A stretch of DNA of 64,000 nt from Gemmatimonadota bacterium (GCA_039588295.1 JBDHAB010000001.1:32001-96000); one strand, 5' to 3'. Positions 14,232 through 25,860 are shown, numbered from the stretch's first letter. Translations and numbers: made by a program. The notes: a model not told the origin generated them from the sequence alone.

Positions 14232-14936
14232 ATGCGATGTTCGCGATGCGGCCATCTGGCGACCGAGAACGATAAGTTCTGCGCTGAGTGCGGCATGTTC
14301 CTTCGGGATGCCTACGTCGACCACCGGCTCCTGCACGCGCTCGTTTCCGAGAGCGAGGGCAGGCACCGCGAGACACGCCGAGAACTCGAGCGCTTGGTGG
14401 AGGCCGAACCCAATCACGTGATGGCGAACCACCTATTGGGCACCGTCTATTTCCATCAGGGAACGCTTGATCATGCCATCGAGCAGTATCAGAAGGCCCT
14501 CGAGCTGGCACCCAATTTCGTGGAGTGCTCGTACGATCTGGGTGTGGCGTTCTACCACCGTGGCAATATGCCGGGTGCCATCCGTGCCTTCCGCCGCTGC
14601 CTGCAAATCGATCCGAATTACAACGCAGCACATTACCGGCTGGCAATCTCGTTGTTTCACGCCGGCGAGCTCGATCAAGCACTCGAGCATTTCGAGAAGT
14701 GCACGGCGCTCACCCCGGAATACCTGATGGCGCGATATCACATGGGCGTGATTTACGAACGTATGGAGAACTTCGAGTCAGCGGCCCGCGAATTCCAGCG
14801 GAGCCTCGACGAAGGCGTCGAGGAGGCGAGCAGTCTCTACCACCTCGCACATATTCACAAATCACGGGGCGATACTGCGACGGCTTCCGGACTGCTCGAG
14901 CGCGCTCGGCAGTTTGGCCGAACCACCGTTTCGTAG
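14232..14936 (+). CDS. Zinc-ribbon + TPR repeat protein
   Basis: N-terminal CSRCG-x9-FCAECG then several TPRs; ATG 14232 after GGAGGGGAG. Confidence 0.8.
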   Translation: MRCSRCGHLATENDKFCAECGMFLRDAYVDHRLLHALVSESEGRHRETRRELERLVEAEPNHVMANHLLGTVYFHQGTLDHAIEQYQKALELAPNFVECSYDLGVAFYHRGNMPGAIRAFRRCLQIDPNYNAAHYRLAISLFHAGELDQALEHFEKCTALTPEYLMARYHMGVIYERMENFESAAREFQRSLDEGVEEASSLYHLAHIHKSRGDTATASGLLERARQFGRTTVS

Positions 14937-14970
14937 GACCTCGCTCCGACGCTCAGCTTCTGGGGTAGCT

Positions 14971-16218
14971 ATGGCGACTGTTCCTCCCGAAGGCAAATTG
15001 ATGTTCGACTGGTCCGACCCAAACGGACAGTCGCAGCCGCGCATGGCAATGCTCGACGACGAAACGCTGCGGGACGGACTGCAGAGCCCTTCCGTCATCG
15101 ATCCGCCGACTGACGTCAAGATCCAGATCCTGCACCTCATGAACAGTCTCGGCATCGAAACCGCCGACGTTGGCCTTCCCGGATCCGGCCCTCGGCAGCG
15201 GGACGCCGTGGAGCGGCTGTGTCGGGAAATCGCGGACGAGCGATTGCAGATCGGAGCGAACTGCGCGGCCCGTACGATGGTGGCAGACATCCAACCGATT
15301 GCCGACGTCGTGCAGAAGACCGGCGTCCCCATCGAGGCCTGCGTATTCATCGGCAGTAGTCCGATTCGTCAGTACGCGGAGGAGTGGGACCTGGAGCACG
15401 TACTACGTCTCACCAAGGAGGCGGTAGAGTTCGCGGTGCGCGAAGGGCTCGAGGTCATGTACGTCACGGAGGACACCATCCGTGCGTCACCCGACCATCT
15501 GCGCGTGCTGTTCGAGGCGGCACTCGCGGCGGGAGCCAAGCGCCTCTGTCTTTGCGACACCGTAGGCGCGGCCGTGCCGCACGGCGTCAAGAACCTCGTC
15601 ACGTGGGTGAAAAGCCTGCTGGACGAATTGGATATGGCCGAAGAGATCGGGATCGATTGGCACGGGCATCGTGATCGCGGACTGGATGTGGCCAACACGT
15701 TGGCCGCGCTCGAAGCCGGCGCCACCCGCGTACACGGCACAGCGCTGGGGGTGGGCGAGCGGGTGGGCAACACACCGATGGAGCAGCTACTCGTCAACCT
15801 CAAGCTCCTCGGATGGCGGAACGACGACCTCACGGTACTACCGGACTATGTCGAGACCGTCTCGAAGGCTGTGGGTGTGCCGATTCCCGTCAACACGCCC
15901 ATCATTGGCCGCGATGCGTTTCGGACGGCAACCGGTGTGCACGCGGCAGCCGTCATCAAGGCGCAGCGTAAGGGGCAATCGTGGCTCGCGGACCGGGTGT
16001 ATTCGGGCGTCCCCGCGAGCTGGGTCGGTCGGGGACAAGAGATCGAGATCGGACACATGTCGGGTGCGTCGAACGTGGTCTTCTACCTGAGCCAACGCGG
16101 CCTGCCAGCATCTCAAGAGGTCGTGCAGGCGGTGCTGGCGGAAGCCAAGAAGGCCGAGCAGTTGCTGACGGAAGAGGAGATTCTCGAAATAGTCAACTCA
16201 GTCACTGCGCAACACTGA
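14971..16218 (+). CDS. LeuA-family (DRE-TIM) 2-isopropylmalate/homocitrate synthase-like enzyme lacking the C-terminal regulatory domain
   Basis: DETLRDGLQSP, LCDTVG, HGHRDRG, GVGERVGN; only ~415 aa. Confidence 0.85.
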   Translation: MATVPPEGKLMFDWSDPNGQSQPRMAMLDDETLRDGLQSPSVIDPPTDVKIQILHLMNSLGIETADVGLPGSGPRQRDAVERLCREIADERLQIGANCAARTMVADIQPIADVVQKTGVPIEACVFIGSSPIRQYAEEWDLEHVLRLTKEAVEFAVREGLEVMYVTEDTIRASPDHLRVLFEAALAAGAKRLCLCDTVGAAVPHGVKNLVTWVKSLLDELDMAEEIGIDWHGHRDRGLDVANTLAALEAGATRVHGTALGVGERVGNTPMEQLLVNLKLLGWRNDDLTVLPDYVETVSKAVGVPIPVNTPIIGRDAFRTATGVHAAAVIKAQRKGQSWLADRVYSGVPASWVGRGQEIEIGHMSGASNVVFYLSQRGLPASQEVVQAVLAEAKKAEQLLTEEEILEIVNSVTAQH

Positions 16219-16221
16219 TCC

Positions 16222-16926
16222 GTGGGCGACCCGACTCGCGCCGGCCTCGCTGACTACCTGCAACCCTCGCGGTTCGTCGATAGCGACCACCCCCGCATCA
16301 TCGCATTTGCACGAGAACTCGCCGCGCCACACAATACCGATCGGCAACGGGCTGTCGCGCTCTACTACGCCGTCCGCGACCGCATCCGGTACGATCCGTT
16401 CCGACTCGATCTCACCCCTGAGGCCATGCGTGCCAGCACGGTGCTCGAGCGTGAATACGGCTTTTGCGTCGCGAAGGCCGTCCTCCTTGCCGCTGCTGCG
16501 CGCGTGCTGGGTATCCCAAGCCGGCTGGGTTTCGCCGACGTCCGGAACCATCTCACCACACCCCGGCTGCGTCGCTTGATGAGTACGGATCTCTTCGCGT
16601 TCCACGGCTACGCGGAACTCTACATCAACGACTGTTGGGTCAAGGCGACCCCGGCGTTCAACCGGTCGCTGTGCGAGCGGTTCGACGTCGAACCACTCGC
16701 GTTTGACGGCGAGCATGACGCGCTGTTGCAGCAGGCCGACCGCAAAGGCAACAGGTACATGGAGTACGTGCGCGACCGCGGCAACTTTGTTGATCTCCCG
16801 CTCGACGAGCTACGGGGGGTATTCGAGGAGCACTATCCGACGCTGTTGGCTCACGGTGCCGTCGAGCACGCCGCGAACTTCGAGCATGATGCAGCTCGGG
16901 AAGGAGACACCTCGTGCGAGAGTTGA
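16222..16926 (+). CDS. Transglutaminase-like domain protein
   Basis: YYAVRDRIRYDP, GFCVAKAVLL, DVRNHL, FHGY, WVKATPAFN. Confidence 0.85.
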   Translation: MGDPTRAGLADYLQPSRFVDSDHPRIIAFARELAAPHNTDRQRAVALYYAVRDRIRYDPFRLDLTPEAMRASTVLEREYGFCVAKAVLLAAAARVLGIPSRLGFADVRNHLTTPRLRRLMSTDLFAFHGYAELYINDCWVKATPAFNRSLCERFDVEPLAFDGEHDALLQQADRKGNRYMEYVRDRGNFVDLPLDELRGVFEEHYPTLLAHGAVEHAANFEHDAAREGDTSCES

Positions 16927-18647
16927 TGTCGGGAAATAGAGCGATTGCCCAGGGTGCCTGGGAGGCGGGTGTGGTATTCGCAGCCGGCTATCCCGGTACA
17001 CCAAGCACCGAGGTCCTGGAAGCGCTTGCCGAATACGACGAGGTGGACGCGCATTGGGCAACGAACGAAAAGGTCGCATTCGAGGAAGGAATGGGAGCTG
17101 CGCTCGGCGGCGTGCGGACCATCGTGACGATGAAGCACGTCGGTCTCAACGTCGCCGCCGATCCGTTCATGGTGTTCCCCTACGCAGGGACAAACGCCGG
17201 CTTCGTCGTGCTCGTGGCGGACGACCCCGGTATGTACTCGTCACAGAACGAGCAGGACAGCCGGTACTTCGCCAAGGTGGCCAAAGTCCCGATCTTCGAG
17301 CCGTCCGACGCCGATGAGGGAAGGGAGCTGGTGAAGCGGGCGTTCGATCTTTCTGAGCGTTTTCAGACGCCCGTCATGTACCGCACCACGACTCGGCTGG
17401 CTCACACCCGAGGCGTGATCGAGCGCGACGGGCGGACAGAGGTGCCTCGAAAGACCTTCTCACGCAACGCCAGCCAGTACGCCATCCCGGTCTACGCCAG
17501 ATTCCGCCGTCCCGAGCTGGAGGAGAAGCTGAACCGGCTGCGTGCCTTTGCCGAGGAGTTTGAGGGCAACAGCATCGAGGAGGGCGATCCCACATTGGCG
17601 GTGGTGAGCCACGGCACGCCCTACCAGTACGTGAAGGAAGTTGCGCCCGATGCCACGGTGTTCAAGCTGGGCATGGTCTACCCGCTCCCCGAGGAGCAGT
17701 TGCGCGAGTTCTGCGCCCGCTTCGAGCGCGTATTCGTGGTCGAAGAGAGCGAGGGGTTCATCCAGCAGGAGATGGCAAGCTTCGGAATCTTCAACGTGAT
17801 CGGAAAAGAGCGGTTCCCCAACATTGGGGAGTTGAGCGCCGACAAGGTGGCCACCGGTCTGACCGGTCGGTCCGTGCCCCCCGACTTCAGCGCGGAGGCC
17901 GCCATTCTTCCGCGGCCACCTGTCATGTGCGCTGGGTGCCCGCACCGCGGCGTGTTCAACTCGCTCCGGAAGTTGAATGTGTTGGTTACGGGGGATATCG
18001 GCTGCTACACGCTGGGCTGTCTCCCGCCGTTTGACGCCATGCATACCACGTTCTGCATGGGAGCCAGCATTGGAAACGCCACGGGCTTCAACAGAGCCGG
18101 TGAACAGAAGGTCGTGGCGGTCATCGGCGACTCCACATTCCTACACGCTGGCATTCCGAGCCTGATCAGCGCCGTGTACAACCAGGTGCCGACCACGACG
18201 GTCCTGGTGGACAACGGCACGACCGGCATGACGGGACACCAAGAACACCCCGGCACCGGACACACGCTCAAAGGGAGCACGGCTCCAGCTGTCGATTACG
18301 AGACGCTGATTCGGTCCGTCGGCGTCGAGCACGTTGCCGTCGTCGACCCGTGGAATCTCGACGAGACCGAGAAGGCTATCTCCGCCGGTCTGGCCCACCC
18401 CGGACCGGCGGTCGTGATTGCCCGGCGGCACTGCACGCTCTTGCCGGAGGAGAAGCTCAAGGAACACGTGGCCTACCAGGTGGATCCCGACGAATGCATC
18501 CTGTGTGAGGAGTGCTTCGAGACAGGCTGTCCCGCCCTGACGCAGACGGAGGACTACCCGTCCATTCGCGCGTGGGAATGCGTTGGCTGTGCCATGTGCG
18601 CTCAGCTCTGCCCCGCGGACGCCATAACTGCAGCGGGGGAGGCCTGA
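16914..18647 (+). CDS. iorA: Indolepyruvate:ferredoxin oxidoreductase alpha subunit
   Basis: GYPGTPSTE, MKHVGLNVAADP, SSQNEQDSR, RPPVMCAGCPHR, GDIGCYTLG, TPP motif GDSTF, C-terminal 2x[4Fe-4S] Cys. Confidence 0.93.
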   Translation: MRELMSGNRAIAQGAWEAGVVFAAGYPGTPSTEVLEALAEYDEVDAHWATNEKVAFEEGMGAALGGVRTIVTMKHVGLNVAADPFMVFPYAGTNAGFVVLVADDPGMYSSQNEQDSRYFAKVAKVPIFEPSDADEGRELVKRAFDLSERFQTPVMYRTTTRLAHTRGVIERDGRTEVPRKTFSRNASQYAIPVYARFRRPELEEKLNRLRAFAEEFEGNSIEEGDPTLAVVSHGTPYQYVKEVAPDATVFKLGMVYPLPEEQLREFCARFERVFVVEESEGFIQQEMASFGIFNVIGKERFPNIGELSADKVATGLTGRSVPPDFSAEAAILPRPPVMCAGCPHRGVFNSLRKLNVLVTGDIGCYTLGCLPPFDAMHTTFCMGASIGNATGFNRAGEQKVVAVIGDSTFLHAGIPSLISAVYNQVPTTTVLVDNGTTGMTGHQEHPGTGHTLKGSTAPAVDYETLIRSVGVEHVAVVDPWNLDETEKAISAGLAHPGPAVVIARRHCTLLPEEKLKEHVAYQVDPDECILCEECFETGCPALTQTEDYPSIRAWECVGCAMCAQLCPADAITAAGEA

Positions 18648-18650
18648 CCA

Positions 18651-19220
18651 ATGCGTGTCACGAACGTGCTCATTGCCGGCGTAGGGGGGCAGGGAGCCAT
18701 TCTAGCCAGTGAGTTGCTCGCTCTGGCTGCGATGGCCGCCGGTCACGATGTGAAGCAAGGCGAGTTCCATGGTGTCGCACAACGCGGCGGCTCGGTGTTC
18801 AGCCACGTGCGGTTCGGCGACCGTGTGTACTCACCCATGACCCCATGCGGAGCGGTCGACTATTTCCTCGCCATGGAGAAGCTCGAGGCGCTGCGCTACG
18901 CCCATTTCGTCAAACCGGGCGGCACGATCATCATGAATGACTACGAGGTCGAGCCGCTCCGCATCGGCGACGAGCGGCCGTACCCCGTCCAAGCGATCGA
19001 GTTTCTGAGGAGCAAGGAGTTCAACGTGGTCGTCGTGGGAGCGACGCAGAAGGCAATCAAACTGGGGAATCATCGCGCGGCCAATGTCACGCTGCTCGGC
19101 GCCTTGGCTGGGTTCCTGGATATCCCCGAAGAGACCTGGGCCCAGACGCTTGAACGCCGGATCCCCAAGAAGTTGTTGAGCTTGAACCAGCAGGCGTTTG
19201 CGGTGGGGCGCGACGTGTGA
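18651..19220 (+). CDS. iorB: Indolepyruvate:ferredoxin oxidoreductase beta subunit
   Basis: AGVGGQG, HGVAQRGGSVFSHVRFG. Confidence 0.92.
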   Translation: MRVTNVLIAGVGGQGAILASELLALAAMAAGHDVKQGEFHGVAQRGGSVFSHVRFGDRVYSPMTPCGAVDYFLAMEKLEALRYAHFVKPGGTIIMNDYEVEPLRIGDERPYPVQAIEFLRSKEFNVVVVGATQKAIKLGNHRAANVTLLGALAGFLDIPEETWAQTLERRIPKKLLSLNQQAFAVGRDV

Positions 19221-19230
19221 CTGATACCGT

Positions 19231-22068
19231 CTAGCGGCCGTCGCCCGGAAGCATCCGGCGATAGCGCTCAGCCTCCTCGGGCCGCCCCCAGTCCTCGTAT
19301 AGTCCTATCAGCCTGCCCAGAGCCCGCTGAACGGAGTCGGGTTCGAAGCCTCCCACGTCCCGCAGCTTCGTGTAGCTGTCCACCAAGAGTTGTTCCGCCT
19401 CCTCGAATCGGCCCTGGCTGGCGAGACAGACACCAAGCCCGTTCTGCGCGGCGACGACCTGCTCCTGAGATTCAGGCAGATTATCTCGCAGAATCTCCAA
19501 TACATCACGAAACAGGGGCTCGGCATCGGAGTACGCGCTTCGATCCAACAACAGCGTTGCGAGCCCAAGCATGGTCGTGGCGGCGAAACGCTGATCGATT
19601 GATGCCCCCCGCAATACTCCCACCGCCTCTCGCCAGAGTCGTTCGGGCTCACCTCTCTTCTCAAGCGCGTACAGCGTGGATGCGAGGTTGCCCTTCACGA
19701 TCGCGGTAAACGGATGGCCCTCCCCCAGCACCTCGACGTACACGGGCAGGGCCGCGCGATAGAGTTGCTCCGCTTGCGCAAACTCACCACGATCTCTCAA
19801 CCGTCCGGCGAAGTCGTTCTTGACCCGTGCCAACTGGGGTGTATCCGCGCCGAGCGCGTCTACATGCGCGGTCATCGAGGCCTCAAACAACGAGTCCGAA
19901 ACAGAATGCTGACCTTGCTCGGCCGTGATATTCGCAAGGCTCAGTAGGCTGTTGCCGATGTCCGGATGTCCATCGGGATAGAGTCGTCGTTGTAGCGCCA
20001 GCGCATCCCGCACTGACACTCCGGCCTCGTGCAGCTTGCCCTGCCGCAACTGCACGGCGGCGAGAGAATTGAGGCTCTTGGCAATGTGGGGGTGCGTGGA
20101 ACCGTACAGTTCGCGCCTGATCACCAGCCCGTCGCGGAAATGCCGCTCGGCCGCCTCGAGGTCGCCCCGATTTTCCTCAATCCATCCCAGATTCATCTTG
20201 AGGGTGGCGATGCCGGAGCGTACTTCCTCTGAGGCCCGCATTTCCCGGCCATAGATCTCCAGCGCCTCCTCGTACACCGACACCGCTTCATCGTGCTCAC
20301 CCTTCACCTGAAGGAGATAGCCAAGATTGTTCAGGCTTCGCCCAAGCTCCACCGGCCTCCTCCGACGACCACTTCGAAGGATGGCCACCGACCGTCGAAG
20401 CAGTGGCTCCGCCTCCTCAAGCTCACCAACATCGGCTCGCAACATCCCCAAATCCGTCAGGCTCTGAGCCACATCGGCGTGATCGGGTGGGAGGGTCCGC
20501 TCGCGCAGATCGAGAGCAGCTTCCCACTGGACAGCGGCTTCGTCGACGAGCCCCAGGGCGTGGTACACTTTGCCGAGTACCTGCATCAGCGTCGCCCCGA
20601 TCTCCGGCTGATCGGCCAGCTCGACCCGGATCCGTTCCGCGCCCCGATCTAGTACCTCGCGCACGGTGACCGTGTCGCCGAGTGTGACACGCGGGTCGGA
20701 GGTCTCAAAGATCCCGACCAGAAACGCCGTTACCTGTTCCGCCTTGTCCCGCTCGCGAGCAGTCCGTTCGGCTTGGATTCCCATCGTCACCGCGAAGGCG
20801 ACGACGGCCACAAGGCCCGCCACCGTCGTCACCACCCCAATCTTGTGCCGTCGCACGAACTTCGATGATCGATAGAGAATCGTATCCGGTTGTGCCGTCA
20901 CTGGCAGACCTTTTTGATGCCGGAGGACGTCATCCGCGAGCTGTTCGGCTGACCCGTAACGGCGTTCCGGCTCTTTGCGCAGCGCCACGAGCACGATGTT
21001 GTCCAGATCACCGCTGAGTTGGCGGCGGAGCTTCTCCGGCGTCGTGCCGCGTGCCCGACTCACGCACTCCGGTGTGATCGGCTCTGCGCGATCAAGATCT
21101 GTCAGCTCCTCCACGCGCGCGGCGGCCGCCGACGGCCGGTCTGGATCGGTCTCCGTAACCACACGCTCCACCTCCAAAAGCGGCCGGCCCGAAAGCCGAT
21201 AGGGTCGGTGGCCCGTCAGCAGCTCGTATAACAGGACGCCCAGCTGATACACATCGCTCGCGGTTGTCACCGGGTCACCGCGCACCTGTTCCGGCGAGGC
21301 GTACTCGGGCGTCATGATCCTGACGCCGGTCCGCGTCTCCGGTCTTGGCGACGCGAGTGCCTCGGGATCGAGGAGCTTGGCGATACCGAAGTCGAGCAGC
21401 TTCACCACGCCGTCGGGCGTTACCAGAACGTTGGCCGGCTTGAGATCTCGGTGAACAATCAGGTGACGATGGGCGTAGTGGACGGCTGAACACACGGCTC
21501 GAAAGAGGTCCAACCGCCGACTAATCGACAGGCGGTGCTCGTCACAGTAGGTATCGATAGGCACGCCGTCGACGTGCTCCATGGCGAAGTACGGCTGTCC
21601 ATCGCTCGTGACGCCACCGTCGAGCAGCCCAGAAATGTTCGGGTGGGAAACCTGGGCCAGGATCTGACGCTCGGCGAGGAAGCGTTGCCGGAGATCTTCG
21701 CTATCGAGATCCGCGCGCAGCAGCTTGAGGGCGACCCGCTGCTCGAATTGGCCGTCAGCCCGTTCGGCGAGGTACACGGCGCCCATGCCGCCATGCCCAA
21801 TCCGGTCGAGAATCCTGTACGGACCGATGAGCGAGGGCGGCGGTACCTCCGGGACTTGTGGCTCCCCCGCTCCCGGTCCACTCATCTCGCCGGCAAGGCG
21901 GTCGAACCGACCAGTCGCGGCGCACGATTCCAGTAACGCCATCACATCACGGCGCAGATCGGGATCACCCGCACAGTGCCCGTCGAGGAAGCGCGACTGC
22001 TCCGCTGCCGGCAGCTCGGACGCTGCAACGAACAGATCTTGGATCTCCTGCAGGCGTTCGGGATTCAT
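19231..22068 (-). CDS. Membrane Ser/Thr protein kinase with C-terminal TPR array
   Basis: GHGGMGAVY, VALK, HRDLKPAN, DFG, TPEYASPEQ; TM segment then many TPRs. Confidence 0.95.
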   Translation of the reverse strand: MNPERLQEIQDLFVAASELPAAEQSRFLDGHCAGDPDLRRDVMALLESCAATGRFDRLAGEMSGPGAGEPQVPEVPPPSLIGPYRILDRIGHGGMGAVYLAERADGQFEQRVALKLLRADLDSEDLRQRFLAERQILAQVSHPNISGLLDGGVTSDGQPYFAMEHVDGVPIDTYCDEHRLSISRRLDLFRAVCSAVHYAHRHLIVHRDLKPANVLVTPDGVVKLLDFGIAKLLDPEALASPRPETRTGVRIMTPEYASPEQVRGDPVTTASDVYQLGVLLYELLTGHRPYRLSGRPLLEVERVVTETDPDRPSAAAARVEELTDLDRAEPITPECVSRARGTTPEKLRRQLSGDLDNIVLVALRKEPERRYGSAEQLADDVLRHQKGLPVTAQPDTILYRSSKFVRRHKIGVVTTVAGLVAVVAFAVTMGIQAERTARERDKAEQVTAFLVGIFETSDPRVTLGDTVTVREVLDRGAERIRVELADQPEIGATLMQVLGKVYHALGLVDEAAVQWEAALDLRERTLPPDHADVAQSLTDLGMLRADVGELEEAEPLLRRSVAILRSGRRRRPVELGRSLNNLGYLLQVKGEHDEAVSVYEEALEIYGREMRASEEVRSGIATLKMNLGWIEENRGDLEAAERHFRDGLVIRRELYGSTHPHIAKSLNSLAAVQLRQGKLHEAGVSVRDALALQRRLYPDGHPDIGNSLLSLANITAEQGQHSVSDSLFEASMTAHVDALGADTPQLARVKNDFAGRLRDRGEFAQAEQLYRAALPVYVEVLGEGHPFTAIVKGNLASTLYALEKRGEPERLWREAVGVLRGASIDQRFAATTMLGLATLLLDRSAYSDAEPLFRDVLEILRDNLPESQEQVVAAQNGLGVCLASQGRFEEAEQLLVDSYTKLRDVGGFEPDSVQRALGRLIGLYEDWGRPEEAERYRRMLPGDGR

Positions 22069-22083
22069 CGCCGTACTCCGATG

Positions 22084-22653
22084 TCAGGAGTCGAGGACCC
22101 CCAACTCCTGATTGAGCCAGGCGCGGCAGATCGCCCAGTCGCGTTTGACCGATGCGACGGATATGCCGAGGGCTCCTGCGGTCTCCTTGAGCGACATACC
22201 GCCGAAGAACCGGCATTCCACCACGCGACACTGCCGCTCGTTCACGGATTCCAGTCTGGTCAGAGCCTCGTCGAGCGCGATCAAATCTTCCGCCCGTTCC
22301 TGTGCAACCTGAAAGGCGTCATCCAGCGGCACCTTGGCTAATCCCCCACCGCGCTTTTCGCGATTACGCGTCCTTGCGTAGTCGATCAGGATGCGGCGCA
22401 TGGCCCGCGAGGCCATGGCAAAAAAGTGCGTTCGATCCCGCCACTCGACGCGATCGACGTTGATGAGCTTGAGGTAGGCTTCGTGGACGAGCGCGGTGGT
22501 AGAGAGCGTGTGTCCGGCGCGCTCGCTGCGAAGGTGCCGATGGGCCAGCTGCTTCAGCTCATCGTAGACGATGGGCATCAGCTCGTCCCAGACCTCGGGA
22601 CGTCCACCCGATAGCGCGACGAGCTTTTCGGTTACGCTGTGGCGGTCTCTCAT
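22084..22653 (-). CDS. ECF sigma factor of the kinase-associated type
   Basis: VYDELKQLA, HTLSTTALVHEAYLKL, MRRILIDYAR, VVECRFFGG, SVKRDW; directly upstream of the kinase. Confidence 0.93.
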   Translation of the reverse strand: MRDRHSVTEKLVALSGGRPEVWDELMPIVYDELKQLAHRHLRSERAGHTLSTTALVHEAYLKLINVDRVEWRDRTHFFAMASRAMRRILIDYARTRNREKRGGGLAKVPLDDAFQVAQERAEDLIALDEALTRLESVNERQCRVVECRFFGGMSLKETAGALGISVASVKRDWAICRAWLNQELGVLDS

Positions 22654-22916
22654 GAACTTGGGCGAACGCTGACAGGCTCACACCCGTAGGAGCCTCGGGC
22701 CGCGTCCGATCCTCCGGATAGCCTATCCCGCGGCTCGGCTTTTCACAATGCTGTGGCTGCCGGGACTCCGGGCTCGCCAGGGCCACGATTGCCGGCCGTG
22801 AGCCGCTCTGCCGTCAAACGTCGCCTGTATCGATAGAGGGATTCGTACCGGGGTGGACGCCGTTATCGAGGGGCGCCTCCCTGTCCACACGGGACGTCAT
22901 ACCGGAGGGTACAACC

Positions 22917-23123
22917 ATGCGTTCGCTCAAAGCCGGTGCTCGCGTGATAGCTGTGTTGGTGTTCGCTGCCGGTGCTGCCGGTCTGGGTTGCGCGACTCTT
23001 GGACCGACCAACCTTGGCACCTGCTACGGGCTTAACGGAGAGTTCCAAAACGGCACGACTGAGTACGAATGCACGAACGACTGTCCGAATTGCTCTTGGT
23101 CTCCCGACCGCGGCCCTGAGTGA
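22917..23123 (+). CDS. Small Cys-rich putative lipoprotein, copy 1 (68 aa)
   Basis: RBS GGAGGG; signal peptide ending GLGC; 4 further Cys; conserved in the second repeat unit. Confidence 0.75.
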   Translation: MRSLKAGARVIAVLVFAAGAAGLGCATLGPTNLGTCYGLNGEFQNGTTEYECTNDCPNCSWSPDRGPE

Positions 23124-23408
23124 ACTCGGTTTCACCGACCTCTGCGGGAGAGCGCGGTGCCGGATCGTAGCGCAACAACTGCGTGCTGGGAATGTACCGT
23201 GGGTCCAACGGGCCGACGCGCTGCGGCACCGTCGTAGGTGTCAGTGTACTCGGGCGTGGCGATTCGAGCGTCACACCATGCAGGTCTTCACGTATTCGGC
23301 ACCGACCTGCTGTCGCCAGTATTGGTAGAGGGATTCGTACCGGGGTGGACGCCGTTGTCGAGGGGCGCCTCCCTGTCCACACGGGACGTCATACCGGAGG
23401 GTACAACC

Positions 23409-23612
23409 ATGCGTTTGCTCAAAGCCGGTGCTCGCGTGATAGCTGTATTGGTGCTCGCAGCAGGTGCAGTCGGCCTGGGTTGCTTCGATACTGGGCCAAA
23501 TGCCCTCGGCACCTGCTACCGTGCCGAAGAGAGCCAAAGCGGCCTGACCCAGGACGAATGCATGGACGACTGTCCGACCTGCTCTTGGTATCCCGACCGC
23601 GGCCCTGAGTGA
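23409..23612 (+). CDS. Small Cys-rich putative lipoprotein, copy 2 (67 aa)
   Basis: Paralog of copy 1 with the same RBS, lipobox-like GLGC, Cys pattern and PDRGPE end; differs by an in-frame 3-nt indel. Confidence 0.75.
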   Translation: MRLLKAGARVIAVLVLAAGAVGLGCFDTGPNALGTCYRAEESQSGLTQDECMDDCPTCSWYPDRGPE

Positions 23613-23760
23613 ACTCGGCTTCACCGACCTCTGCGGGAGAGCGCGGTGCCGGAGCGTCGCGCAACGACCGCGTACCGGGGATGTACCGCGGGTCGAACGG
23701 GGCGACGCGCTGCGGCAGTCTCGTAGGTGTCAGCGGGCTCGAGGCGTGGTGATTCGAGTG

Positions 23761-25860
23761 TCACACCATACAGGTCTTCACGTATTCGGCACCCACCCGC
23801 CCCTCCCGACACGCCGCGGACACCATGAACTCGGCCGAATGGTTCGCCTGCACCGTCAGCGCCTCGGACAGCGGAGTATGGCAGGCGCCGTCGATGCAGG
23901 CCATGATTGCCTTCCTGCCGGCGTCGCTCCCCGGTGTCCCCGCAGGGGGCAATGCACCCACCTCCTTCGAGACTCCGTCGAGCGCGCCCACTTCGACATC
24001 TCGACGGGGGAGGCCGTGGTCGGCCCCGGTGGCCACCTGCCACGCCTTCTGGATTGCATCCGCGAGGGGCGCCGCGTAGTCGATGAGCCACCCCACAGCG
24101 TCGGTCGCCCGCACCGACCGGCCTGTGAGCAACAACTCAACCAGCCGAGGCCAATCATCGGACCGGGCTTTCCGAAACGGCCAGTGGCAGCCCTCCATTC
24201 CGGGTACGACGGGCAACGTCACCTCGGGCATGCCGAGCTGTGCGCCGTCCACAGCGATGAGGTAGTGGCAGTGCATGAGCAGCTCCAGCATGCCGCCTAG
24301 ACAGCGCTTGCCGTTCACGAAGGCCACAGACGTCTCGAACTCGTCGTGCAGGCGTCGCGCGGTTCGCGACCAATCGCCCGCAATCCGAGAACCTTCGGCC
24401 GACTGCTCCAATGCGGGGAAGAACTCGTTTGTGTCGGCTCCTACCATCTGCGTTGCGAGATGGAAATCTCCGGTCACGATCACCCGGCCGATACCCGCGG
24501 CCTTGAGCGCGTCGATTGCCCGATTGAGCTCGACGTCGACGTCGGCATTGTAGCTCTCCCGGCTGATCGTGATCACGCCCGTCGAGCCGTCGTGTTCGGC
24601 GTTCACGTACAGCTGCCGCCACTCGGGCTCATCCATTCGCGCGCAGGTGTCCGGATACCACGCGTGCCCCGCTGCCTCCGGATGCAGCTGGTGATACGCC
24701 TCGACCATTCGAATGACGGCGTCGGGACCCATGCCGCGCATCACCGCGAGGACACCGCGGCGGAATTGCGCGCAGAGTTCACCGATTGCGTTTATATGCG
24801 CGAGGTGACTGCGACGCTCGTGAAGCATGAGACTCGTCATTTGGAACAGCGGTCCGAGAATCCAGGTGCGGAATTCCTCGTCGTCGTCACCCTCCAATGA
24901 CCAGTTCACCAGCGGCCGGAAGTGGTTGGGTGGATACCACGACTGACCGCTGTCCTTCTGTGCGATGAGCTCCACCGTCGGCTCGAATACCGCACCGTAC
25001 TGCTGACTCAGGTGATGCAAGCACGACCAGGTCAGGAAGTTGGCGCCCTTCGCGCCGATGGCGTCGTGCGCCCTGAAGGGGTTCGGCCCAAGCAGCTTGC
25101 GGGCGAACTTGTCGACCTTCCAGAAGGGCATGTTGCGCGCGTGGTGGAACCTGAGCGCCGCGAGTGTGAGGCCGCAAAACAGCACATCCAACACGAACGA
25201 CCAATGGTCACTCACGGGGATGGGCATCAGCCCCAGCGCCCAAAGGAGTTGTGTAATCGCGGACGGTTCCGGCTCGACCACTTCCCAGACCTTGTTGATC
25301 TCGTGGGGGAAGGCCGGGTGTGCAATTCCAACACCCAACTCCGAGCTTGGGAATCCGGACGTGACCGAACGGATCTCGATTTCCGGAAACGACTCGCGGA
25401 AGATCCCGTAGTGCGCCTTCTTGACCTCGAGGATCTCCGGGATCGCTTCCAGCAGAAAGCGCGGATTGAGGTTCTTCAGCTCCGATGGCAAGTGCGTGCC
25501 GTCGTAGCTCAGTCGGATGATGTTCCCCATGATCCGCGCGGCCCCCTCCGACCCAAACGCCTGCACCAACCCGGGATACTGCCTTCCCACGCCATCGGGC
25601 GCGTTAGGAAAATCGAGGGCTACGATCCGCACGTCGAACGGCTGCAACCTTGAGCCCAGCTGCATCGTCTTGCCGGCACCGACGATGCCATTGGCGCCGG
25701 AAATGACCAGGGACCCCCGTGCCCCTGGCTTGCCGAACACCTGATCCACCAGGTCGCCCGGATCCGCCGGGAGTCTTCCTTGGCGGTAGATGTCAATGAC
25801 GCCGCCGAGCCCAATCGTGTGGAGTGTCGGTTCCCGCATCGCCGTAATCATCGCCGTCAA
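23761..25860 (-). CDS. Divergent 3-hydroxyacyl-CoA dehydrogenase / enoyl-CoA hydratase fusion
   Basis: N-terminal Rossmann-like GANGIVGAG, LLEAIPEILEVK; C-terminal crotonase motifs CLGGMLEL, GMPEVTLPVVPG. Confidence 0.75.
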   Translation of the reverse strand: MTAMITAMREPTLHTIGLGGVIDIYRQGRLPADPGDLVDQVFGKPGARGSLVISGANGIVGAGKTMQLGSRLQPFDVRIVALDFPNAPDGVGRQYPGLVQAFGSEGAARIMGNIIRLSYDGTHLPSELKNLNPRFLLEAIPEILEVKKAHYGIFRESFPEIEIRSVTSGFPSSELGVGIAHPAFPHEINKVWEVVEPEPSAITQLLWALGLMPIPVSDHWSFVLDVLFCGLTLAALRFHHARNMPFWKVDKFARKLLGPNPFRAHDAIGAKGANFLTWSCLHHLSQQYGAVFEPTVELIAQKDSGQSWYPPNHFRPLVNWSLEGDDDEEFRTWILGPLFQMTSLMLHERRSHLAHINAIGELCAQFRRGVLAVMRGMGPDAVIRMVEAYHQLHPEAAGHAWYPDTCARMDEPEWRQLYVNAEHDGSTGVITISRESYNADVDVELNRAIDALKAAGIGRVIVTGDFHLATQMVGADTNEFFPALEQSAEGSRIAGDWSRTARRLHDEFETSVAFVNGKRCLGGMLELLMHCHYLIAVDGAQLGMPEVTLPVVPGMEGCHWPFRKARSDDWPRLVELLLTGRSVRATDAVGWLIDYAAPLADAIQKAWQVATGADHGLPRRDVEVGALDGVSKEVGALPPAGTPGSDAGRKAIMACIDGACHTPLSEALTVQANHSAEFMVSAACREGRVGAEYVKTCMV

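Follow-up and report, generated by a model that had tools for sequence, protein, structure and literature searches.

Described systems and the present locus

RcsF, of the Rcs phosphorelay, and NlpE, which acts with CpxA, are accessory envelope lipoproteins that feed sensor kinases, and in plants the Cys-rich peptide SCR/SP11 is paired with the receptor kinase SRK. As for the bacterial Hanks-type receptor kinases, we know of hardly any ligands or accessory proteins and, likewise, of hardly any signals reaching the kinase-controlled sigma factors of the extracytoplasmic function (ECF) type. ECF sigma factors encoded beside Ser/Thr kinases are thought to be activated by direct phosphorylation, which has been shown in some cases, and the ECF43-type pairs EcfP/PknT of Vibrio parahaemolyticus and EcfK/PknS of Xanthomonas citri are treated as phosphorylation-controlled in the available portions of two papers (PMC7826278, PMC13147305), which mention no small Cys-rich partner for such pairs.

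The present analysis concerns a stretch of 64,000 nucleotides from a Gemmatimonadota bacterium (GCA_039588295.1, JBDHAB010000001.1:32001-96000), hereafter called the window, in which two tandem genes encode the small Cys-rich proteins P0001 and P0002, divergently from an ECF sigma factor gene and a receptor Ser/Thr kinase gene. These proteins appear to represent a new small-protein family attached to Hanks-type kinases, with a role that may resemble that of the known accessory sensor proteins. The explanation favoured here, although held with slightly less than even confidence, is that they are periplasmic partners of receptor kinases.

Like RcsF and NlpE, they would be small, exported and possibly lipid-anchored proteins with structural or redox-sensitive Cys, working as periplasmic co-sensors of a membrane sensor kinase. 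They differ from both in lacking sequence or fold similarity, in having a domain three times smaller and a lipobox that is not conserved in the family, and in being associated with a Hanks-type Ser/Thr kinase rather than a histidine kinase. With the ECF43-type pairs, the window shares an ECF sigma gene whose stop lies 15 nt from the start of a co-oriented gene for a transmembrane Ser/Thr kinase, with no anti-sigma gene in the block (only kinase, sigma and peptide genes, by Pfam), the sigma factor being likened to them by gene arrangement only. As in the SCR/SP11-SRK pair, a small, putatively secreted and disulfide-framed peptide with variable loops is encoded next to a receptor Ser/Thr kinase whose extracellular domain is large. 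The two cases are unrelated in lineage and in fold, and a ligand role would here be one by analogy.

Two small proteins of an undescribed family

The peptide genes and the repeat units that carry them are as follows.

22820..23311, plus strand: tandem unit 1, 492 nt (repeat finder and pairwise alignment)
23312..23803, plus strand: tandem unit 2, 492 nt (repeat finder and pairwise alignment)
22820..22916, plus strand: unit 1 leader, whose GGAGG stands 8 nt ahead of the ATG; twin at 23312-23408, 4/97 positions differing
22917..23123, plus strand: peptide gene 1, encoding P0001 (68 aa), with a signal region (1-25) and a mini-domain (about 31-66)
23409..23612, plus strand: peptide gene 2, encoding P0002 (67 aa), the open reading frame (ORF) of unit 2
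22992..23078, plus strand: fast-diverged loop core, codons 26-54; twin at 23484-23567, 28/84 aligned positions differing
23271..23311, minus strand: 3' remnant, within unit 1, of an ECH-like gene (the stop and the 12-13 codons before it)

P0001 and P0002 are 70% identical and differ in length by a single one-codon in-frame indel. Both start with MR.LKAGAR, followed by a 15-residue hydrophobic stretch resembling a Sec signal, and their signal region terminates in GLGC. The mature part reads GTCY, then 14 (P0001) or 13 (P0002) residues, then C-x3-CPxCSW-x-PDRGPE. A GGAGG motif stands 5-9 nt upstream of the ATG in both window copies and at the three distinct loci checked elsewhere (L083, L066, of which L116 and L126 are identical copies, and the second of the two peptide genes at L087). 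All these elements, namely the units of about 490 bp, the conserved leader with its ribosome-binding site, the GLGC end and the Cys motif, had been described in an earlier, sequence-only reading of the window and hold in both copies.

The same reading had called the products lipoproteins. A K or R precedes the hydrophobic run in all ten family members, by inspection of the sequences, and a lipobox at the end of this run is found under a loose, PROSITE-like rule in 5/10 members, including both window copies (..GLGC). In its strict L-x-x-C form ([LVI][ASTVI][GAS]C), however, it is found in 0/10, and two of the ten have no Cys at the signal end. Lipoprotein status is thus tentative, and the lipobox seems doubtful as a family trait.

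The family comprises 10 distinct sequences, P0001 and P0002 included, and outside this pair the identity to P0001 ranges from 27 to 43%. Seven positions are invariant in 10/10 members (G34, C36, C52, C56, P57, C59 and W61), T35 being nearly so, and the four conserved Cys follow the spacing C-x15/16-C-x3-C-P-x-C, the CPxC element being invariant except in P0012 (CPGGPGC). When conserved positions were defined from the eight outgroup members alone (kept in at least 7/8), none of nine had changed between the window copies, whereas 19 of the remaining 34 positions in the mature part had (Fisher, one-sided, p=0.0023). The positions that vary between P0001 and P0002 also vary across the family. Neutral decay, which the sequence-only reading had named among the outcomes that would count against it, does not fit because both copies retain every scaffold residue, and both ORFs are best read as functional paralogues of a small, presumably exported protein.

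With AlphaFold2, run on the 10-sequence alignment, residues 31-60 were modelled at a predicted local distance difference test (pLDDT) of 84-88. The model has three strands (34-37, 43-47 and 60-63) and a helix (49-55); C52 lies in the helix and C56 right after it. The predicted fold is a beta-beta-alpha-beta (E-E-H-E) mini-domain of ~40 residues following the signal peptide. Structure searches with this model gave noise-level matches only (best Foldseek E 2.6, best VIA Z 2.4), bearing in mind that domains this tiny seldom score. These include the de novo mini-protein gEEHE_02, of the same E-E-H-E topology (Z 2.0, root-mean-square deviation 2.1 over 32 residues), as well as two Foldseek matches, FSTL3 at E 2.6 and LDTI, a Kazal inhibitor from leech, at E 9.1.

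Linkage to receptor kinases in other lineages

In all four lineages outside the window whose gene context is readable (G001; L066, with L116 and L126; L083; L087), an orthologous kinase gene is followed directly, on the same strand, by one peptide gene or two. Where measured, the distance from the kinase stop to the peptide gene is 80 nt (L066) and 101 nt (L083). The partner kinases, which are 45-53% identical over the whole available length, have a single membrane helix and a C-terminal domain of ~680 aa, the following two being listed:

L047:5888-9076 and L066:6294-9215 (minus strand for L066): partner receptor Ser/Thr kinase, conserved, about 1000 aa

Since the kinases are orthologous, the four linked loci amount to one conserved arrangement and not to four events. 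This gene order has persisted even though the kinases have diverged to the extent given above and the peptides to about 30-40% identity.

The ~680-aa domain had no match among Pfam families or PDB sequences. Its model is all-beta, with a mean pLDDT of 55.6 that rises to about 80-88 at residues 420-620, and in Foldseek it comes closest to double beta-propellers (TM about 0.27, E from about 7e-9 to 9e-9), among them the domains with which hybrid two-component systems of Bacteroides sense in the periplasm. With TM scores this low, the beta-propeller is a predicted fold class and not a family assignment; confidence in the model is low in the N-terminal half.

The sigma/kinase block in the window

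In the window, the peptide units belong to a larger block.

19221..23760, no strand assigned: extra block of 4.5 kb (kinase, ECF sigma factor, two peptide units), between the POR-gamma and ECH-like genes
19231..22068, minus strand: receptor Ser/Thr kinase, 945 aa, Pfam Pkinase + TPR (STK-TPR)
22084..22653, minus strand: ECF sigma factor, 189 aa, PF07638 (E 1.6e-54)
23761..25860, minus strand: ECH-like gene, 699 aa, weak ECH_1 match (1e-5); native neighbour, convergent with peptide gene 2

The kinase matches Pkinase (4.9e-42), TPR_10 (1.9e-55) and TPR_12 (8.3e-51), and consists of a kinase domain, a single helix at residues 410-428 (Kyte-Doolittle scan) and a TPR region at residues ~490-895, which, judging from the single membrane helix, would face the periplasm. 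Its PADLOC matches concern the generic kinase domain only. The peptide genes start 263 nt from the ECF sigma gene, from which they are divergent, as had been noted at first reading.

Orthologues of the ECH-like gene, 69-85% identical, are present in 8/8 same-genus genomes, and the 4.5-kb block is missing at this site in the three of them that were compared (G007, G003 and G001). In G007, whose ECH-like protein is 85% identical, the ends of the POR-gamma and ECH-like genes are about 10 nt apart (tblastn synteny), within the contiguous order HMGL, TGase, POR-alpha/beta, POR-gamma, ECH-like and thiolase. The order is the same in G003, with a 369-nt gap between POR-gamma and ECH, and in G001 the ECH-like gene adjoins the TGase/HMGL genes. 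The block has a GC content of 0.634, not deviating from its flanks, and no flanking direct repeats of at least 8 nt. The simplest history would be that the kinase, the sigma factor and one peptide gene came as one block, after which the peptide unit doubled; two separate insertions at one site are a possible alternative.

Upstream of the block, window positions 14914-19220 hold HMGL-like, transglutaminase-like and 2-oxoacid:ferredoxin oxidoreductase genes, which are syntenic in G007 and G003 and served as a synteny anchor; only the first two were matched in G001. The oxidoreductase, an alpha/beta fusion with a ferredoxin domain followed by gamma, belongs to ordinary metabolism.

Possible periplasmic partners or incidental neighbours

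The proposal of a periplasmic partner is made because both kinds of neighbouring kinase are of the receptor type, with large protein-interaction domains that would lie in the periplasm, to which the mini-protein, too, would be exported. The mini-domain would be carried there by its Sec-type signal peptide or membrane anchor, perhaps with a lipid on Cys25, and would be held together by the four invariant Cys, probably as two disulfides. There, the family would work with receptor Hanks kinases made of a cytoplasmic kinase, one helix and a large periplasmic protein-binding domain, which the mini-protein may bind or modulate as a ligand or as a tethered co-sensor. In most carriers, the gene stands co-oriented with, and right behind, a beta-propeller-type kinase gene. 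In the window, it would have arrived in one block with the ECF sigma factor and the TPR kinase, from which it is divergent; it was then duplicated in place, the copies retaining the leader, with its putative promoter, and the scaffold while altering the loops. The kinase signal would here pass to the ECF sigma factor through phosphorylation, and the peptide genes may be sigma targets in turn.

Several observations weigh against this proposal. The sensor domain of the kinase linked to the peptide in the other lineages is not that of the TPR kinase of the window, and the window genome (96% complete) has no orthologue of the beta-propeller-type sensor domain at E<=1e-5. At L131, the sole readable orthologous ECF/STK-TPR locus (kinase 58% identical in its TPR part), there is no peptide gene, and no other sampled genome (301 of the order, 401 of the phylum) combines the peptide with an ECF/STK-TPR pair. 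No ECF-type promoter is recognisable, nor was a sigma-70-like promoter or a terminator found, and the leader shared by the copies occurs nowhere else in the genome. No RNA dataset was among the sequencing runs found for the cassette. Finally, with 76 Pkinase matches in the 4.5 Mb of the genome, besides at least three pairs of a PF07638 sigma factor and a kinase, a place beside some kinase would be expected by chance in a few per cent of cases, which is not negligible. The kinase link claimed in the sequence-only reading is thus sustained at the family level (4/4 lineages) and by the local 4.5-kb block, but not in the form first given, the partner elsewhere being a beta-propeller kinase and the orthologous sigma/kinase locus being without a peptide.

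Some of these points feed the most probable of the alternatives, namely that the peptide is a small envelope protein unrelated to signalling, an incidental neighbour whose loops are simply unconstrained. The abundance of kinases in the genome, the single evolutionary event behind the four linked loci and the absence of a peptide gene at L131 all fit such a reading, as do a core dN/dS near 1, expected of relaxed loops, and the family-wide variation at the positions that differ between the copies. It does not sit well with the retention of gene order at the divergence reported above, with the co-insertion of the peptide here with a second, unrelated receptor kinase, nor with a leader far more conserved between the copies than the neutral distal flank (3/120 vs. 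22/147 positions differing, p=0.0005). We regard it as unlikely on balance, while granting it real weight.

The partner proposal can also be carried further, into a Gemmatimonadales peptide/receptor-kinase system. By analogy with the plant pairs, the peptide would be the secreted, disulfide-stapled and possibly strain-specific cognate ligand of a Hanks kinase whose ectodomain is of the beta-propeller or TPR type. New specificities would come from tandem duplication followed by changes in the loops, and the output would here run via a phosphorylation-controlled ECF sigma factor. In this full form it is quite improbable; if true, it would be a bacterial counterpart of the plant Cys-rich peptide/receptor kinase pairs. 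As to its wider interest, the unit formed by a conserved receptor kinase and a tiny Cys-framed protein offers a concrete and testable candidate partner, and the window genome a natural experiment, with the same mini-protein family placed on a different sensor domain and freshly duplicated. Unless the principle is general, its reach is limited by its rarity (2/401 phylum genomes, uncultured carriers).

Other sigma/kinase loci were also read. At L131, the divergent position (L131:2620-4110, minus strand) codes for an exported protein of 496 aa in which Big_7 and CBM96 domains are combined, so that the position beside the sigma/kinase pair is again occupied by an envelope protein, unrelated to the peptides. 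In G000, the genome of the window, two further PF07638 sigma genes, 50-61% identical to that of the window, lie at C34:37746-39352 and C2:161650-163100, each beside a kinase-domain gene; no peptide homologue is found beside these two other pairs. There is no peptide gene either at the ECF locus of G004, whose sigma factor (59% identical) is probably a paralogue. The wider search for homologues suggested at first reading thus yielded the family of 10 sequences and no peptide at the other ECF/STK loci read.

Tandem duplication and mosaic divergence

Positions 22820-23803 form a head-to-tail repeat of a 492-nt unit, over which the pairwise alignment is continuous. The repeat finder resolved it into three families of direct repeats, co-linear and spaced by 489-492 nt: 22820-23027/23312-23519 (88% identity), 23036-23252/23525-23741 (86%) and 23253-23310/23743-23800 (91%). 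Each unit contains a 97-nt leader, the peptide ORF and ~190 nt of 3' sequence, the final ~42 nt being the minus-strand 3' end of the ECH-like gene, ending in ..VGAEYVKTCMV-stop. The genuine end of this gene, at 23761-23803, gives the identical translation, and the closest relative, G007, keeps the same C-terminus. The remnant in unit 1 is a dead copy. Because unit 1 holds it, the duplication was a segmental tandem duplication in place, and therefore one that postdates the arrival of the peptide gene beside the ECH-like gene.

The divergence between the units is strongly mosaic. Over the leader and codons 1-12 (22833-22952) the three differences already counted are found, followed by 7/39 in the remaining signal region, 28/84 plus a 3-nt indel in core codons 26-54, 4/86 in codons 55-68 and the proximal 3' region, and finally the 22/147 of the distal 3' flank. 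The core has thus diverged more than the distal non-coding flank (33% vs. 15%, Fisher p=0.0015), in line with the first reading of strongly changed residues between the Cys in a preserved frame. The leader may be read as either under purifying selection or lately homogenised, and the loops as having changed as fast as neutral sequence, or somewhat faster, while the scaffold was kept. Between the copies, dN/dS (Nei-Gojobori) is 0.62 overall; it is lower in the signal region, at 0.21, and reaches 0.79 in the core, where pN is 0.355 and pS 0.418. The diversifying selection put forward in the sequence-only reading is left unproven by these values, since with two sequences positive selection would be inseparable from relaxed loops combined with flank conversion.

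The leader and the 3' regions show no sign of a structured RNA: Rfam gives only a chance snoRNA match (E 0.33), and folding is no better than in shuffled sequences for the leader (z 0.09) and the two 3' regions (z -0.30 and 0.59). The leader probably holds each copy's own promoter.

A diversity-generating retroelement was considered as the source of the loop changes. The core substitutions involve all four bases without adenine bias, because of which a retroelement-type mutator is unlikely and the adenine-specific pattern of such targets finds no support. A Pfam scan, limited to the neighbouring genes, detected no reverse transcriptase.

This pattern of divergence is what gives substance to a second alternative, in which the peptides are an exported effector and form the output of the module instead of its input. 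They would be secreted, disulfide-rich peptides of a bacteriocin- or defensin-like kind, antagonistic or protective, turned on by the sigma/kinase pair and with loops diversified in an arms race. A conserved leader and signal region before a fast-changing mature part on a fixed Cys framework would be in keeping with this, as would a core diverged beyond the non-coding flank, repeated tandem duplication within the family and the divergent position next to the ECF sigma gene, which is typical of sigma targets. Two sediment contigs that match the leader and signal region at about 95-98%, then end or stop aligning, point very weakly in the same direction. On the other hand, the core dN/dS does not exceed 1, no immunity, transporter or maturation gene is present in the block (Pfam), the model has no structural match above noise level to known antimicrobial folds, and the placement of the gene in a kinase operon in 4/4 other lineages better suits a partner than a weapon. 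The effector reading is accordingly taken as fairly improbable.

The contigs in question, from two sediment metagenome runs, are short and match the unit-2 leader and signal region with 4/164 and 10/208 differing letters (within 23312-23519). The first, X1, stops at 23475, inside the signal region; the second, X2, aligns to 23519, just within the variable core, and its 33 further letters do not fit. Very short as they are, they may hint at other alleles in related strains. Three DNA sequencing runs gave only short pieces, mostly less than 90% alike, and no contig spanning the cassette.

Cysteine framework and described peptide families

The active site of thiol-disulfide oxidoreductases takes the form CPxC, and envelope stress systems receive input from small lipoproteins with Cys, NlpE and RcsF among them. 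In a further alternative, the C-x3-C-P-x-C cluster would bind metal or cycle between thiol and disulfide, as a chaperone or as a sensor that reports the redox or metal state of the periplasm, either by itself or as the part of the kinase system that senses. The invariant CPxC plus the third and fourth Cys would agree with such an activity, which is nevertheless very improbable: the domain, of ~40 residues, does not have the thioredoxin fold, its sequence matches none of these families and no metal-handling gene was found nearby (Pfam). That the ORFs are chance frames or decaying duplicates is scarcely credible, for although the products are tiny, unnamed in any annotation source and without expression evidence, they are conserved in a family, have a ribosome-binding site, differ by an indel that leaves the frame intact, retain the scaffold and yield a mini-domain modelled with confidence.

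Membership in described classes was also considered and rejected. The CS-alpha/beta defensins, knottins and Kazal inhibitors have frameworks of 6-8 Cys, as opposed to the four conserved here, and the 1+3 pattern agrees neither with the six Cys of Kazal domains nor with the CxxxC plus CxC of CS-alpha/beta defensins. As for the thioredoxin-like oxidoreductases, a CxxC is present, but the fold of ~100 residues is not (40-residue E-E-H-E model), and Pfam gives no match. Concerning lanthipeptides of class III/IV or other precursors of ribosomally synthesised and post-translationally modified peptides, the neighbouring kinase consists of Pkinase, one helix and TPRs only, the N-terminus is Sec-like and no maturase is encoded in the block (Pfam).

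Extent and rarity of the family

The peptides have no match in Pfam, NCBIfam, PADLOC or PDB sequences and no annotation name in any source consulted, and no report of such a family was found in the literature on Gemmatimonadota, Hanks-type kinases and ECF sigma factors. The family thus is, as far as these searches go, previously undescribed, as proposed at the outset, and very rare, with about 10 distinct relatives. All records with titles are from Gemmatimonadales, and the carriers are uncultured organisms only.

Single-sequence searches are nearly blind to this family. A word-indexed search of 5.8 billion proteins returned the query alone, P0004 as a single query retrieved nothing in genome contigs, and the best ESM Atlas score (0.83) was under the useful range. 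An exhaustive profile search of 1.84 billion representatives gave, at E<=1e-3, P0002 itself and P0003-P0005. P0006, from the same-genus genome G001, was spotted by eye among weak tblastn matches (E=0.23 among 61 relatives). By profile, 16/301 genomes of the order matched at E<=0.01, G000 and G001 alone being convincing (E<1e-20); the 14 others (E 1e-3 to 1e-2), which were not singly inspected, mostly involve the signal-peptide part or lie within long ORFs. In the phylum sample, 2/401 genomes match.

A DNA motif scan with the degenerate pattern [QE]-x-[QE]-C-x3-C-P-x-C-[ST]-W gave 29 loci in species-representative genome contigs, two of which are real (L066 and L068); L075 was read and rejected, and 26 further loci were rejected by eye. 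In metagenome contigs, four of 51 loci are real (L083, L087, L116 and L126), the 47 others being rejected as they lack the G-[TNS]-C element and the signal peptide.

At L087 (431-1118, minus strand), two diverged tandem peptide genes lie 3' of the kinase, and therefore the peptide gene has been duplicated more than once in the family. One product, P0012, lacks a Cys where the signal ends and has an expanded CPGGPGCTW motif; the other, P0013, has the standard CPTCTW motif. P0004 and P0005 resemble this pair and are each recorded on two contigs; the matching longest contig (9787 nt) suggests that both are on one contig.

Finally, a 121-aa lipoprotein-like ORF of genome G027, P0007 (L004:1339-1701, minus strand), shares GTC..(19)..C-x3-SW-x-PDR-x-P with the window peptides, with 34% identity over 35 residues (pairwise E 9e-5), the SW-x-PDR-x-P tail being otherwise unique to the latter. 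It is devoid of the C-x3-CPxC cluster, carries an extra C-terminal domain and may be either a distant relative or a coincidence.

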